A stretch of 64,000 bases of DNA from Escherichia phage EAWsc9: the sequence record PQ341120.1, one strand, 5' to 3'. Shown here piece by piece: positions 1,560 through 63,584 of the stretch. How positions within the stretch are numbered: the stretch's first letter is position 1; every line of letters starts with the position of its first letter. A model generated the notes under the pieces. The model was given only the letters and a program-made list of their open reading frames with translations, had not been told where the DNA came from and did no database searches. The position numbers were made by a program, and so were the translations under genes.

Positions 1560-1600
1560 GGAATCATTATGCACTGGACCAACCCTGTTGTAAACCCCTT
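1560..1600 (-). promoter_or_regulatory. T4-type early promoter (-35 GTTTACA, -10 CATAAT)
   Basis: minus-sense GGTTTACAAC ... GCATAATGA about 50 nt before the ATG at 1524. Confidence 0.6.
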
Positions 1601-1608
1601 TATGGAAA

Positions 1609-1636
1609 ATAAAAAAGGGACTCCGAAGAGTCCCTG
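1609..1636 (-). terminator. rho-independent terminator
   Basis: hairpin GGGACTC-TTCG-GAGTCCC followed by T-run in minus sense. Confidence 0.7.
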
Positions 1637-1639
1637 AAC

Positions 1640-1801
1640 TTATGCTTTCGGCTTACCAAAGCAAGCTGCATCGGCACGCAATACCGCACGAGCACGAGCC
1701 TGAAGTTTATCAGTCACCTGATTGATTCGCTTGTTGGACGCACGCTTGTAACCAGCGCGTTTGGAGGAGCCATCAACAACTTTAACTTCTTTCTTAGCCA
1801 T
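1640..1801 (-). CDS. small highly basic protein, 53 aa (MAKKEVKVVDGSSKRAGYKRASNKRINQ...)
   Basis: ATG-to-TAA ORF below the 60-aa track cutoff; terminator directly downstream. Confidence 0.5.
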   Translation of the reverse strand: MAKKEVKVVDGSSKRAGYKRASNKRINQVTDKLQARARAVLRADAACFGKPKA

Positions 1802-2199
1802 ATTAAATTCTCTTTAAAATAGAATGCAGGACTTATTGGCATTGCCTGCGCAAGCCCTCGAAGGGAACATTAGGTTTCGGATATTTAACGACAGGATAAC
1901 CATAAACCTCGTCATCATACCTTATAGCTCTTATCTGTTGCACACCGTTAGCTTAAAGGTTCCGGGTTCGATTTCTCGAGGATAAGATATATACTGATGG
2001 ATATATAGGCCTTGAGGCGTACTCCCGATTGGCCATCACCTCGGGGTAGCATGCACTTGCCGCTATAAGAATAACATTCAAGAGGTACACCGTAAAATTG
2101 CCGGGGTCTTAAAACTATAATGATTCGCAAATCATTAATCAGACGGTTCGACGGCTCCTCGATTTTCTAGCCGCACTAAGGTAGCGAATCACCTACAGC
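1802..2199. other. ORF-free, comparatively GC-rich intergenic region with several short hairpins; candidate structured RNA or regulatory region
   Basis: no credible ORF across about 395 bp in an otherwise gene-dense genome. Confidence 0.35.
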
Positions 2200-2454
2200 T
2201 TACTTCAGGGTTACGACAAAATGGCGAACAGCTTTACGGGCAGCAGATGCCAGCGGCTTAGCAAATTTCAGTTCATCTTTTGCTTCGAGCACTGCGCGAA
2301 GGTCGGTTTGAACCGGGTTAAGATGTTTGAAATACTGCAGAATTTCCAGTGCTTCGGCTTCAACATCAATAGATGCGCCGTAGTTTTCGTGACCGTTATT
2401 CCATGCAGTGCGTTGCAGTTCGAGAGCGTGTTGTAATTGTTTGTTTAAAGACAT
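2200..2454 (-). CDS. rIII: rIII lysis-inhibition accessory protein, 84 aa from the SD-preceded ATG (track ORF 2200..2523 is over-extended)
   Basis: size and position next to gene 31 as in T4; GAGG SD 9 nt before ATG. Confidence 0.6.
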   Translation of the reverse strand: MSLNKQLQHALELQRTAWNNGHENYGASIDVEAEALEILQYFKHLNPVQTDLRAVLEAKDELKFAKPLASAARKAVRHFVVTLK

Positions 2455-2625
2455 TTTAGAAGCCTCAATATGAGGTGAATATTTGGTGGACACGTTCTTC
2501 TGAATTTCACTTCCTTTCGGCAAGTCTCTCAGTTGTAGTCCACCGTTTAGGATTAGCTAACCCCATACACCAGCAAAGCTCTGTATGACATCAACCAATC
2601 CATATTATTATTTATAACGCTAATT

Positions 2626-4121: not shown

Positions 4122-4457
4122 TTACATCACCACGAGATAATTGGTTTTAATAGTTTCAACACGATATAATTCATGTCGCAATTTAGTAATGCTCTTAACA
4201 TGTGTTGTAATTATACTATCACCGTCGCTGAAGCGTTTTTTCTTATCGTCAAAAATCACCCCAAACATTCGCTCACCAATTTCTACAGGAGCTTCTGTGA
4301 TAACAATCGCATCATAATTACTTGGGTGAATACTTTTAAACAGAGCATCATTCGCAAGCGTTACTTTGATAAATGCAGTTGTTTCTGGGTCCAACTTACG
4401 ATGGTCACCTAAATCATTTTTAAGTGATTCTTTGAAAATATCCATTAAATTCATCAT
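4122..4457 (-). CDS. hypothetical protein, 111 aa
   Basis: track ORF. Confidence 0.55.
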   Translation of the reverse strand: MMNLMDIFKESLKNDLGDHRKLDPETTAFIKVTLANDALFKSIHPSNYDAIVITEAPVEIGERMFGVIFDDKKKRFSDGDSIITTHVKSITKLRHELYRVETIKTNYLVVM

Positions 4458-4699
4458 TGAATATACACTCGCTGCGCTTCAACCAGACCATCAGAACCCA
4501 ATTTCAGTTGGGTAAACTGGTCACCACCTTTTAGAGTAATTTTCGGATTAATGACAATCATAAAACTGCGTGCAGATTCCTGAATAACTTGCAAAGTCGC
4601 AGCAGGGAATCGCTGTGATACGCGGTTAATCATCTCTTGAGCAAATGCCTTCACTTTTTCGTGAAACTCTTCAACAGTAATTGGGGTTTCGCTAAGCAT
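4454..4699 (-). CDS. hypothetical protein, 81 aa
   Basis: track ORF, 4-nt overlap with neighbours. Confidence 0.55.
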   Translation of the reverse strand: MLSETPITVEEFHEKVKAFAQEMINRVSQRFPAATLQVIQESARSFMIVINPKITLKGGDQFTQLKLGSDGLVEAQRVYIQ

Positions 4700-5241
4700 C
4701 AGATTGTCTCCTGTTTAACTTGTTTAACGATAGAAGCTTTTGTGATATCGCCTTTGATAATATAACAATCTTCTGCAGTACCGCGGTTTAACAGGCGCTC
4801 TGCTTCGTCTTCCGCATATTCTTTTGACGTATGACGAGAGTTAATCTCAATCTTGCCATTTTTAACCACGAGCAATTTCCAAACTGATGCAAGTTTTACT
4901 GGCGCAGGTTCAACTTCTGGCTTAACGCCAACTTCTGCCTGAATAAAATATTCGAATTCATCTGACAATGGACCAGCGGAAACAAACATTGCTCCACGAT
5001 GTCTGTTTCCTTCGTCAGATATTTTTGCCAAATCCACAAAATCATTTTCATCAATCAAACGAATCTCACAAACTTTTTTACCGCCGCTAACATTATCAGG
5101 TAAAATCTTAACTTCAAATGGAGTCATACCGATGTATCCGGCAATTTGGTAATTAGCTGCCCAGCCTCCGGCAATAAATTGTTTTTTGGCATTTTCAGAT
5201 ACAAATTTGTAAAACTTACCTTCTTCAAAGAAATCGCTCAT
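4699..5241 (-). CDS. hypothetical protein, 180 aa
   Basis: track ORF. Confidence 0.6.
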   Translation of the reverse strand: MSDFFEEGKFYKFVSENAKKQFIAGGWAANYQIAGYIGMTPFEVKILPDNVSGGKKVCEIRLIDENDFVDLAKISDEGNRHRGAMFVSAGPLSDEFEYFIQAEVGVKPEVEPAPVKLASVWKLLVVKNGKIEINSRHTSKEYAEDEAERLLNRGTAEDCYIIKGDITKASIVKQVKQETI

Positions 5242-60039: not shown

Positions 60040-60408
60040 TTAACCTCGCTTCATGAAAGCATTAAAAATCTGGTCATCAATATCAGTAGGCGGTTCTTGA
60101 GATTTAACCCAGCCAGCATCCAGAATGTCATTTGCTTCAGTAGATAGCATGACCCCAATTTCAGGATTTCCGGTTATCCACGCTGCACAATCGCGTACAT
60201 TCTTTTTATCAAATGGATAGCCACGAGTATCTTCATAAGGCCCATTCATTACCATAAATGAGCGAGCCTTTATGATAACGCCATCTTTAACAATAATATA
60301 ACCAATCGCCTGATTATAACGAGGCTCGCGGAATTCATAATGAGCATTACCATCATTATTTTTAACTAATTCAAAATTCAGATAAGACAAATCGCTTTGA
60401 ATATACAT
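60040..60408 (-). CDS. hypothetical protein, 122 aa; C-terminus paralogous to the next gene
   Basis: shared C-terminal DDQIFNAFMKR and about 45 bp of near-identical 3' DNA. Confidence 0.55.
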   Translation of the reverse strand: MYIQSDLSYLNFELVKNNDGNAHYEFREPRYNQAIGYIIVKDGVIIKARSFMVMNGPYEDTRGYPFDKKNVRDCAAWITGNPEIGVMLSTEANDILDAGWVKSQEPPTDIDDQIFNAFMKRG

Positions 60409-60409
60409 A

Positions 60410-60847
60410 TTAATCTCGCTTCATAAAGGCATTAAAAATTTGGTCGTCAACTGAATATACAGGGGTTTCTAGAAGTTTCAAAAGACTGTTTTTAATGTAC
60501 TTACCCGGGATACCCATATTAACAATACTGTCATTCAATTCATTGTTAGGATTGATGTCTTTAAATTCAAACCCATCAAACTCAACCTTGTCAGGAATAC
60601 CATCAGCGAAAAAATAAACCAATTGGTGCATTGTATTGCGCGAAAATAATTTAGACTTGACTGCAATAAGTTCTTGCCAATGGTTTAATTCTTTGTTAAT
60701 AAGCTTATGAGCAAACGTAATTCTATCATCACTATCAACAAGAAAATAACCCAGGTATTGAATTTCGTCGCTCCAAAACACCCGGTATGCCTGTGCATTT
60801 GGATTTTTACAGCGAAGTTTTTTGATAACTAAATTTCTGTTAATCAT
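60410..60847 (-). CDS. hypothetical protein, about 146 aa (track ORF 60410..60934 trimmed)
   Basis: GGTGA SD; same C-terminal motif as the previous ORF. Confidence 0.55.
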   Translation of the reverse strand: MINRNLVIKKLRCKNPNAQAYRVFWSDEIQYLGYFLVDSDDRITFAHKLINKELNHWQELIAVKSKLFSRNTMHQLVYFFADGIPDKVEFDGFEFKDINPNNELNDSIVNMGIPGKYIKNSLLKLLETPVYSVDDQIFNAFMKRD

Positions 60848-60848
60848 T

Positions 60849-61142
60849 TTATTCACCTGTAACCCATTGAACAATTTTGCTATTGTCAAATGAAGCATCG
60901 CAATACAGAACATAGTTATACTGCATAACGTCACCAGAAGTCAATTTGTCAGATACTTCTTTAACCATATCAGGGCGGTCACGTTTAGTTATGTTCATAA
61001 TATCAGCATAAATCTGATGTTCAACATCAGTCTGGTCAGCAGTCATAGACCACTCACAAAGGTCTTTATCAAGTCCAGCAGTAACTGGAGCTGTACCACA
61101 TGATGCTACGGTAAGAATTGCTGCAATTAATAACTTTTTCAT
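60849..61142 (-). CDS. sp: Spackle-like periplasmic protein (superinfection exclusion / lysozyme inhibitor)
   Basis: 97 aa with signal peptide; DKDLCEWSMTADQT motif as remembered for T4 Sp; same length. Confidence 0.7.
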   Translation of the reverse strand: MKKLLIAAILTVASCGTAPVTAGLDKDLCEWSMTADQTDVEHQIYADIMNITKRDRPDMVKEVSDKLTSGDVMQYNYVLYCDASFDNSKIVQWVTGE

Positions 61143-61200: not shown

Positions 61201-61542
61201 TTATTTTTCACCTTCAACTGAAAAACCGGTCAAGTTGTAATATTCAGCACGTGCAATATGAAGAGCTGCTTCAATATCAGTAAGGCAGATTTCTTCATTT
61301 AACAGTTGCGCTTCAACGGTCAAAATCAGATTACGCAATGCGGTACCCTTACGCATGTCTACTTTATGAATTAGCTTGTCATCAACAAAAGCTTCAACCA
61401 GCGCATTATAGTTATCAGCAGTCTTCTGGACATACCAGTGAATACCTGCGGGGTGGAACATGCTAGAACGTTCAAAAGATGGTACACCAACAGCACTCAC
61501 TTTGATTGTTACTTTTACGCGGTCTTCTGGATTAAAAGCCAT
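61201..61542 (-). CDS. 113-aa protein containing a Dmd-like segment (dmd paralogue)
   Basis: YNALVEAFVDDKLIHKVDMR vs Dmd NNALVKAFVNDNKVFEYDYR. Confidence 0.6.
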   Translation of the reverse strand: MAFNPEDRVKVTIKVSAVGVPSFERSSMFHPAGIHWYVQKTADNYNALVEAFVDDKLIHKVDMRKGTALRNLILTVEAQLLNEEICLTDIEAALHIARAEYYNLTGFSVEGEK

Positions 61543-61755
61543 TTAGATTTCCTCAGATAAGTGGATACGATAATCATATTCAAAAACTTTATTGTCATTA
61601 ACAAAGGCTTTCACCAGCGCATTATTCACTTCTGCATACTGCACTGTAACCCATTCAATCATATTTTGGTCACTAACATCTAGTGCAGTTTCTTTGGTAA
61701 ACATATTACCATTTTCAAACCAACCAATAAACACTACTTTCTCTAATTTATGCAT
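61543..61755 (-). CDS. dmd: Dmd antitoxin-like protein (inhibitor of host RnlA/LsoA-type RNase toxins)
   Basis: 70 aa; KVVFIGWFENGNMFTKE and YAEVNNALVKAFVND resemble remembered T4 Dmd; adjacent to gene 41. Confidence 0.7.
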   Translation of the reverse strand: MHKLEKVVFIGWFENGNMFTKETALDVSDQNMIEWVTVQYAEVNNALVKAFVNDNKVFEYDYRIHLSEEI

Positions 61756-62073
61756 TTAGATTTCCTCACAGAAGGCCCATTCGGCGTGATAAACTGTTGC
61801 GCCTTTAGTATCATTTAAACAAACCACGTCAACAGGTGCAATCACACGATAAAGACGGGGTTCTCCTCCATATGAGCGAGCTGCTCTTCCTGCATAGATA
61901 CGGGCCAAACCAATATCTTCAGTAAAAAACACACGCCCTAAATTTTTCTTGCGCCCAACTTCTGACAGAACACCAGTTGCATCAGGAGGGCAAAGCATAT
62001 TTTGGATTCCAGCATTAGAGCTTGAGCCATGATAATAAACTTTGTATTCCGCCTTGCAATCAATAGTTTTCAT
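61756..62073 (-). CDS. 105-aa protein with ADP-ribosyltransferase-fold-like motifs (YHGS ... aromatic-x10-Tyr)
   Basis: KVYYHGSS and VFFTEDIGLARIYAGRA resemble the H-G-S/T and Y-x10-Y elements of PARP/Tpt1/DUF952-type proteins. Confidence 0.55.
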   Translation of the reverse strand: MKTIDCKAEYKVYYHGSSSNAGIQNMLCPPDATGVLSEVGRKKNLGRVFFTEDIGLARIYAGRAARSYGGEPRLYRVIAPVDVVCLNDTKGATVYHAEWAFCEEI

Positions 62074-62114
62074 TTTATTCTCCAGTAGTTGATAGGGTCA
62101 TTATAACATAAGAA

Positions 62115-62135
62115 AAAGGGGCTGTAAGCCCCTTT
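62115..62135 (-). terminator. rho-independent terminator after gene 41, overlapping the next promoter
   Basis: GGGGC-TTACA-GCCCC plus T-run in minus sense. Confidence 0.65.
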
Positions 62136-62144
62136 TAAAATATT

Positions 62145-63584
62145 TTAAAATTTCATTTGAGCAGCAAGGTCGTCCAGGTCGCTCCTGTTGACCCTGGTTT
62201 GTCGATTCATTTCAGCCTGGCGATTCATCTCACCGGTGGCTTCTTTAACCGTAGGGCCTTGTTTAGGAGCCGAATCATCATCAACCTCATACCAGCGCTG
62301 ATTACCTTTCTTAACACCCATCTTGAATTTATTATAGTAGTTTTTATCGCCGTAACGAGACTTAAGCTGTTTGATTAACTGCAGTCCCATTTGAGCGAAT
62401 TCTTCGGTCTCAACAACACCTAACATAAAGTCAGCTGTGTGAGCAATACCAAAGGATTCTGCAATGTCAGCCATATCAATCTCAGCTGCAACGTTCGCGC
62501 CTCTGGTCGTCTGTGCTGCAGTCCACAGGACCACATTTTTCTCGACTGCCAGCCCACGAAGTTCTTCTGCAACCATCTTAATCAGACCGTAACTGTTTTC
62601 GGTAAACGTTTTCAGTCTTGAGCTTGCACAGATTGCCAGGTAGTCAACAATAATCACATCCGGTACAAACCCTTGCTTCAGTTTGTATTCGTTCAGTAAT
62701 GCACGGAAAGTATCCGCATGAGCACCACCAGTTGGATATTGTTTTATCTTCAGAGTCCCAAGAGTCCCAGAAGCACGCCATTTTTCCATCTTAGCTTTAT
62801 ATTCTGCCCATGATATATGACCTTCATCAATATCATCCAGAGACACATCCAGCAAGTTGGCATCAATACGTTTGGCACATACTTCTTCGGCCATTTCCAT
62901 GCTTATATAAAGAACGTTATGACCAGTCTGAAGATAGTCAGCCGCTAACGAACAAAGTCCAAGGGATTTCCCGACGTTGGTCCCGGCCAGTAAAACGTTC
63001 TCTGTGCCGTACTCAACTCCACCTTTCGTAATTTTATTCAGGATGTTAATGCGGAACGGAACTTTCTTCGATTTGTTCAGATAAGTCTGGAATCGAGCCT
63101 CGTAATCGTTTAACCAGTCATGGCCAAGGGCAGAATCAAAACAGATGGACAATGCATCACGCATAATGTCAGGGATAGCACCGATATCCGGGATTCGTTT
63201 ATCACGCTTATCTTTCGGAAGTTCAGCATTACTCTGGATTTCGATAATCCTGGATGTGGCATTGAACATCGCAGACTTCTGTACATACTTCTCGGTTTCT
63301 CTGACCAACCATTCCTGGTCTTCTGGAGTATCGGCCAGGACTCCTAAGAGTTTCTTTGTGCCTTCATATTCGACCTCAGAAAGGTCAGAACTGTCGAGCG
63401 CAATATCAAGTGCAGTTTTAGTTGGTACCGCTTGATATTCTTTTACATGTTCGTTAATCGTATTAAAAAGGGTCTTCGCTGGACCCTTTTCAAAATATGT
63501 GCTATTCAGATATGGCCAGACTTTAACAAAATATTCCTTGTTAAAGAGTAGCTGGGATAAAATAGTTTCTACCACTTCCACCAC
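62145..63584 (-). CDS. 41: replicative DNA helicase gp41 (DnaB-like)
   Basis: 479 aa; Walker A GTNVGKS and DnaB-family blocks; same size and position as T4 gp41. Confidence 0.93.
   Translation of the reverse strand: MVEVVETILSQLLFNKEYFVKVWPYLNSTYFEKGPAKTLFNTINEHVKEYQAVPTKTALDIALDSSDLSEVEYEGTKKLLGVLADTPEDQEWLVRETEKYVQKSAMFNATSRIIEIQSNAELPKDKRDKRIPDIGAIPDIMRDALSICFDSALGHDWLNDYEARFQTYLNKSKKVPFRINILNKITKGGVEYGTENVLLAGTNVGKSLGLCSLAADYLQTGHNVLYISMEMAEEVCAKRIDANLLDVSLDDIDEGHISWAEYKAKMEKWRASGTLGTLKIKQYPTGGAHADTFRALLNEYKLKQGFVPDVIIVDYLAICASSRLKTFTENSYGLIKMVAEELRGLAVEKNVVLWTAAQTTRGANVAAEIDMADIAESFGIAHTADFMLGVVETEEFAQMGLQLIKQLKSRYGDKNYYNKFKMGVKKGNQRWYEVDDDSAPKQGPTVKEATGEMNRQAEMNRQTRVNRSDLDDLAAQMKF

Follow-up and report, generated by a model that had tools for sequence, protein, structure and literature searches.

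Which protein is encoded between dmd and the gene 41 helicase gene of Escherichia phage EAWsc9, where T4 has only a 58-bp dmd-41 gap with no gene inside, and what could it contribute to infection? The stretch analysed here (the window, 64,000 nucleotides (nt) of record PQ341120.1) holds at this position a small open reading frame (ORF) of 105 codons, read on the minus strand from an ATG start. A first-pass annotation, made from the letters alone, had pointed out this ORF and had placed no gene at the corresponding position in T4; the present analysis confirms both. The product (MKTIDCKAEYKVYYHGSSSNAG...VFFTEDIGLARIYAGRAARSYGGEPRLYRV...CEEI) is interpreted as a stand-alone ADP-ribosyltransferase (ART) domain related to Arr and Tpt1, and probably acts as an early-made mono-ADP-ribosyltransferase dependent on nicotinamide adenine dinucleotide (NAD+), in host takeover or counter-defence. 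The gene and its upstream neighbour are located as follows.

61756..62073, minus strand: ART-fold coding sequence (Arr-like, minimal, 105 amino acids (aa)), with candidate NAD-contact residues H15-G16-S17, F49, T51 and Y60 and the family signature S37-E38-x-G40-R41-K42-K43-N44.
62145..63584, minus strand: gene 41 helicase, upstream of the ART gene.

The source DNA shares ~95% identity with phages of the genus Gaprivervirus (vB_EcoM_VR20 and TH44, for example) and is on that account assigned to a T4-like (Tevenvirinae) coliphage. The ART protein matches PHROG 2110 ('unknown function') over its full length with an expectation value (E) of 9.7e-59, and 609 phage records are hit by tblastn in the phage database, their hosts including Escherichia, Klebsiella, Acinetobacter, Aeromonas, Enterobacter and Vibrio. 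In pairwise comparisons with orthologues, the ratio of nonsynonymous to synonymous substitution rates (dN/dS) is 0.07-0.12, at a dS of ~1 or more, with synonymous sites near saturation. The dN/dS values and the breadth of occurrence rule out a spurious ORF and mark the frame, far beyond chance, as a real gene. The RB69 orthologue, RB69ORF040c, is 86% identical and lies at the same locus. Several GenBank records already label orthologues 'putative ADP-ribosyl transferase'; another orthologue, 99% identical, in MW233709.1 (Escherichia phage UPEC01, 42061..42375), is labelled 'clamp loaded subunit DNA polymerase' in GenBank, an evident mis-annotation. A literature search retrieved no experimental study of the ART family or of RB69 ORF040c.

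The AlphaFold2 model of the protein, computed from an alignment of 41 close-family members (A1), is confident, with a predicted local distance difference test score (pLDDT) of 86.6 and a predicted template modelling score (pTM) of 0.78. It consists of a strand (residues 13-18), a short helix (30-33), a second strand (48-51), a helix (54-68) and a series of strands (72-81, 84-87, 94-97 and 99-104). Together, these elements make up a split β-sheet core whose structure can be superposed on those of solved ARTs. The best superpositions are with the NAD lobe of Tpt1/KptA and with Arr, Tpt1 being the best structural match. The superposition, together with a profile match to Arr, supports the ART fold that had been proposed from sequence motifs, and the proposed one-lobe size is recovered as well, the phage protein corresponding to the NAD lobe of Tpt1 only. 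DarT (DUF4433) and DUF952, which the first-pass annotation had also named, are not the nearest relations by structure or sequence; Tpt1 and Arr are closer. The same ranking bears on the idea of a RES- or Tox-type NAD+ glycohydrolase or phosphorylase, which would change the pools of NAD+ and ADP-ribose with no macromolecule modified. RES-type matches are much weaker than those to Tpt1 and Arr, the protein contains no R-E-S motif, and NAD depletion would presumably harm a phage that relies on host metabolism, so that an activity of this kind is very improbable.

The affiliation with Arr (rifampin ADP-ribosyltransferase; PF12120) emerges from the widened family alignment (A2). The close-family profile A1 finds no match in a PDB sequence search, and the Pfam gathering cut-off for Arr-ms is not reached by any of the 41 members of the close family, four of which give weak Arr-ms matches, the best with an E of 0.084. 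Arr is reached only with A2, which retrieves the Arr-ms structures 2HW2 and 9IAF from the PDB (hmmsearch, E 4.9e-4) in an alignment that pairs Arr H19 with H15, Arr Y49 with F49, and Arr E40-x-G-R43 with E38-x-G40-R41. In a profile-profile comparison of A2 with an Arr alignment (A3) by hhalign, the match has a probability of 95.8% and an E of 7.1e-9, over residues 8-84 only. Homology with Arr extends over strands 1-3, including the E38-x-G40-R41 motif. The protein is placed by these profiles as a stand-alone ART domain of ~95 core residues, on a divergent branch of the Arr assemblage. Because the profile match is strong but limited to residues 8-84, it is classified as a divergent, truncated relative of Arr and not as an Arr orthologue.

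Arr is nonetheless the closest family by sequence, and bona fide Arr genes are present in some actinophages (Iyer et al. 2022, PMC9503650). A true Arr function, in which rifamycin-type antibiotics are ADP-ribosylated and the RNA polymerase of the infected host is thereby shielded, is thus one explanation to be weighed. However, the N-terminal two-thirds alone aligns, and the Arr D84 loop and the C-terminal part completing the rifampin site are not common to both proteins. The phage protein is ~40 residues shorter than Arr-ms (143 aa) and has no direct PF12120 match; its Y60 is invariant, and its basic loop R41-K42-K43-N44 stands in the place of G-R-I-M-N in Arr-ms. Moreover, it is the product of a putative phage early gene, whereas Arr is encoded by a bacterial resistance gene, and a lytic T4-like phage would presumably gain little from antibiotic resistance in its short cycle. 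With the C-terminal catalytic/substrate region missing, bona fide Arr identity is rejected, and antibiotic modification is scarcely credible as the function of the gene.

Within the fold, the residues expected to contact NAD form the conserved core. In the close family (A1), the columns of H15 and G16 do not vary, position 17 holds Ser or Thr, and F49 and Y60 are invariant with x10 spacing. In the wider family (A2), the invariant columns are H15, G16, A57 and Y60, followed by P29, P30, E38, R41, F49, T51, A61, A64, G69, G70, P72 and G91, each conserved at 90% or more. S/T17 is conserved in both alignments, as part of the strand-1 NAD-contact motif H-G-[ST]. The H-G-S/T strand and the aromatic-x10-Tyr element of the first-pass annotation are reproduced here. 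Of the features of the H-Y-[EDQ] clade (PARP/diphtheria toxin type), F49-x10-Y60 matches the Y-x10-Y element on strand 2 and the helix after it, with Phe in the place of the first Tyr; no conserved Glu, Asp or Gln on strand 5 is assignable. The H-G-[ST] and aromatic residues that are invariant here are the set kept by active ARTs.

An exhaustive HMMER search with A1 extends the family to 242 relatives, many of which are domains of ~95 aa within proteins of up to 3924 aa. Fifteen of the 35 multidomain relatives scanned pass the Pfam Arr-ms gathering score, with 26-38 bits over model positions 1 to ~67 of 99. The domains found beside them in these polyvalent proteins are portal, ART-PolyVal, LPD23, CHAP, GNAT, Toprim, NUDIX and 2H. 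Polyvalent proteins enter with the invading DNA, to act from the very start (Iyer et al. 2017, PMC5512222). Among the relatives P0148, P0153 and P0185, direct fusions join the ART domain to a 2H phosphoesterase (Acb1-like) behind a portal domain and, in two proteins, to a NUDIX domain. Modules of the 2H phosphoesterase and NUDIX types process ADP-ribose-phosphate products. The fusions hint at a coupled pathway, with both partners acting on ADP-ribose-phosphate or nucleotide products.

The ART protein is also more conserved than the essential gp41 helicase within the same genome pairs. Measured against VR5, identity is 89.5% for ART and 79.7% for gp41; against Klebsiella phage Kpn35c1, the values are 71.4% and 56.3%, respectively. 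These sequence identities imply that the gene is under very strong constraint or has spread horizontally in recent times. Since ART identity lies above that of gp41, and since phages and mobile elements carry relatives of the domain within polyvalent proteins, the target is presumed to be a conserved one, either shared by many Gammaproteobacteria or belonging to the phage itself, and not a single fast-evolving defence protein.

The profile link to Arr, the strong purifying selection seen in dN/dS, the conservation above gp41, the predicted early-type promoter and the polyvalent-protein relatives are the grounds on which the protein is taken to be, probably, an early NAD+-dependent mono-ADP-ribosyltransferase. 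In this scheme, it would be expressed very early from its own early-type promoter, bind NAD+ and transfer a single ADP-ribose to a substrate, perhaps the end of a nucleic acid, a core protein of the host or a small molecule, with host takeover or counter-defence as the result. Several findings weigh against this reading. The protein alone has no match in Pfam (E up to 1), NCBIfam, PADLOC or the PDB sequence search. The essential D84 of Arr (EDDPN loop) has no conserved counterpart, and the Arr alignment ends at residue 84. The wider family (A2) shows no conserved acidic column beyond residue 72, and no catalytic acid is assignable in the protein from A1, A2 or the Arr profile alignment. H96 and E103 are conserved in the T4-like clade only, as a comparison of A1 with A2 indicates. 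Two placements of the acid were considered in addition: a simple extension of the Arr alignment, which puts D84 on the variable positions C85, L86, N87 and D88 and was rejected, and D82, a topological candidate, first in the strand after the β-3 hairpin, which is not invariant.

The lack of a conserved catalytic acid, the very small size of the protein and its binding-type anti-defence neighbours (Dmd and the products of two ORFs that end in the AdfA/gp61.2 tail, described below) would also suit a non-catalytic ART fold. Such a protein could serve as a sponge for NAD+ or an ADP-ribose-derived immune signal, or could work against ART toxins of the host, such as DarT or CmdT, by inhibiting them or acting as a decoy. 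Yet Tpt1-type ARTs function without a strand-5 acid, and the residues that are invariant here are those that active ARTs keep. In addition, relatives of the domain are joined to enzymatic modules in polyvalent proteins, and conservation above that of gp41 would be unusual for a stoichiometric inhibitor engaged in an arms race. Taken together, these features render a purely binding role rather unlikely.

A more specific form of the mono-ADP-ribosyltransferase reading, clearly tentative and itself unlikely, takes the protein as the smallest self-sufficient ART. Through Tpt1-like, acid-independent chemistry, it would ADP-ribosylate the phosphate or hydroxyl termini of RNA, in an RNA-directed counter-defence or takeover reaction belonging to the same arena as Dmd. 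This modification would cap or block ends from host anticodon nucleases or HEPN RNases, or inactivate a conserved host RNA. The suggestion arises because Tpt1 is the best structural match, no strand-5 acid is conserved, the basic E38-x-G-R41-K-K-N loop is invariant, and 2H and NUDIX fusions occur. Compared with the RNA 2'-phosphotransferase Tpt1/KptA (9LD3, 7KW9, 8TG3), the phage protein consists of the NAD-binding C-terminal lobe only, lacking the two-lobe architecture, and it has no sequence-level match to Tpt1. In Tpt1, an N-terminal RNA-binding lobe of ~80-90 residues supplies most of the Arg-His-Arg-Arg catalytic tetrad.

Other ADP-ribosyltransferases of phages are more distant. AcrF11, an anti-CRISPR mono-ADP-ribosyltransferase (6KYF), has no detectable sequence kinship with the protein; AcrF11 is sporadic and directed at one defence system, whereas the phage ART family is widespread and very conserved. 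Alt, ModA and ModB of T4 are ADP-ribosyltransferases for host takeover. They belong to the R-S-E clade and are much larger, and Alt is packaged in the virion; none of the three is among the top structural matches of the ART protein.

The short interval between the gene 41 stop and the ART start carries the elements on which the proposed early expression rests.

62100..62128, minus strand: putative sigma-70/T4-early-type promoter, with -35 CTTACA (62128-62123), a 17-nt spacer and an extended -10 TG-n-TATAAT (62108-62100); pattern scan 10/12 + TG, a consensus match only.
62114..62136, minus strand: G+C-rich stem-loop AAAAGGGGC-TTACA-GCCCCTTTT from the terminator scan, directly past the gene 41 stop, terminator-like, its loop holding the -35 hexamer.
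62078..62084, minus strand: Shine-Dalgarno (SD) sequence TGGAGAA, its GGAG core ending 6 nt 5' of the ATG at 62073; read from sequence.

The arrangement suggests that ART heads a putative early transcription unit composed of ART, dmd and a dmd paralogue. 'Promoter-early stem-loop' elements mark the boundaries of mobile cassettes in T4-type genomes, and the hairpin with its predicted promoter looks like such a boundary. The ART gene behaves as a cassette of its own, inserted behind gene 41. In the source phage, the interval between gene 41 and ART is a promoter/hairpin spacer of 71 bp and nothing else (62074..62144). In VR20, an additional 100-aa ORF (4411..4713 in the VR20 locus stretch) lies between gene 41 and ART, and in RB69 the 124-aa ORF041c occupies this place. 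By this comparison, the interval is a hot spot of cassette gain and loss.

Downstream, the ART gene runs directly into dmd.

61543..61755, minus strand: dmd (70 aa), directly downstream of ART; Pfam Dmd E 5.7e-21; PHROG 2102.
61753..61767, minus strand: junction GAGGAAATCTAAATG, in which the ART stop TAA abuts the dmd ATG (TAAATG), with the dmd SD within the last ART codons.

The 15-mer GAGGAAATCTAAATG (16 nt when the preceding T is counted) has an exact second copy at 61540-61554, at the junction of dmd with a 113-aa ORF (2 matches against 0.02 expected). By Pfam Dmd (1.7e-3) and jackhmmer (1.9e-19), this ORF, which follows dmd at 61201..61542 on the minus strand, encodes a paralogue of Dmd. 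The C-terminal ends of Dmd (...LSEEI) and ART (...CEEI) are also alike. The repeated junction and the like C-termini look like what a tandem duplication beginning within the 3' end of ART would leave behind.

A 'novel type-II T-A system', that is, a toxin-antitoxin (TA) pair, was predicted from a p0068-family ART and Dmd in phages of Escherichia, Shigella and Salmonella; the p0068 family was put in the H-Y-[EDQ] clade, its ART was regarded as possibly RNA-directed, and Dmd was proposed as the antitoxin (Iyer et al. 2022, PMC9503650). The ART-dmd pair described here is very probably the same, since gene pair and host range match. The clade placement differs, in that the present data put the protein nearest to Arr and Tpt1, with no assignable acid. 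In such a module, the ART would be a toxin, for example an RNA-modifying one, neutralised by the adjacent and translationally coupled Dmd. Besides the published prediction, the abutting ART stop and dmd ATG favour this arrangement, as do the kindred ART domains that serve as effector modules of large proteins.

The distribution of the two genes was followed through 58 IMG/VR loci encoding ART, with Dmd sought within 3 kb, including by six-frame jackhmmer. Dmd is present in 10 of the 58, directly downstream in those 10 and in RB69, which again speaks for a pair; the six-frame search for hidden Dmd homologues yielded no additional loci. Against a pair, the other 48 loci lack Dmd within 3 kb, including relatives at 85-88% identity that follow gene 41 (L011, L014, L018). 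The genes downstream of ART come from a wide range of unrelated families or are encoded on the opposite strand, and clustering of three neighbours on each side in 59 loci reveals no universal partner gene. In Slopekvirus, RB43-like and Aeromonas phages, ART comes after an unrelated gene of 250-300 aa and before a small membrane protein; in Acinetobacter, Proteus and Vibrio phages, its neighbours are different again. The 250-300-aa protein belongs to PHROG 7439/7204 and is lineage-specific, as at L003 (KP15, 1593..2468) and L005 (Aeromonas phage 31, 1680..2441), and it has no homologue within the window.

The reverse comparison leads in the same direction. Dmd occurs in 781 phage-database records, almost all from Escherichia, Shigella, Yersinia and Salmonella, whereas many of the 609 records with ART are from Klebsiella, Acinetobacter and Aeromonas. 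Most Dmd-bearing phages lack ART; T4, for instance, has Dmd and no ART. The Dmd of T4 is known to act independently against RnlA and LsoA, which counts against its being the antitoxin of ART. Because the same TAAATG junction links dmd to its paralogue, the coupling is not specific to ART and dmd. From these gene neighbourhoods, Dmd is judged an independent neighbour and its adjacency to ART a lineage-specific one, not an obligate two-gene module, and an ART toxin held in check by Dmd is an unlikely account of the locus.

Two adjacent ORFs near this unit, 60410..60934 on the minus strand (174 aa, probable real start Met30) and 60040..60408 on the minus strand (122 aa), both end in ...DDQIFNAFMKR[DG]. 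The shared tail is the C-terminal tail of T4 gp61.2/AdfA, an anti-DarT factor (blastp 6e-5 and 1e-5; Pfam AdfA 3e-4). AdfA seems to have been split or diversified into two putative paralogues here.

In conclusion, the assignment of the protein to the ART fold is solid but not new, and its pairing with Dmd had already been published as a prediction. New here are the specific placement near Arr and Tpt1, the lack of an assignable catalytic acid, the truncated C-terminus, the predicted private early promoter, the unusually strong conservation, the polyvalent relatives and the lineage-specific nature of the Dmd pairing. The last of these narrows the published prediction: because ART is not generally paired with Dmd, a TA reading is not to be assumed. 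T4-like phages are the best-studied phages, and the ART gene is present in about 600 sequenced genomes, including that of the model phage RB69, which makes it a good experimental target. The protein is among the smallest ART-fold proteins known; if it is a working ART at 95-105 residues, it would set the lower size limit and show which residues are truly needed. Knowledge of its substrate might bring to light a new reaction by which phages take over the host or counter its defences early on, and would clarify the ancestral, non-antibiotic role of the Arr family.
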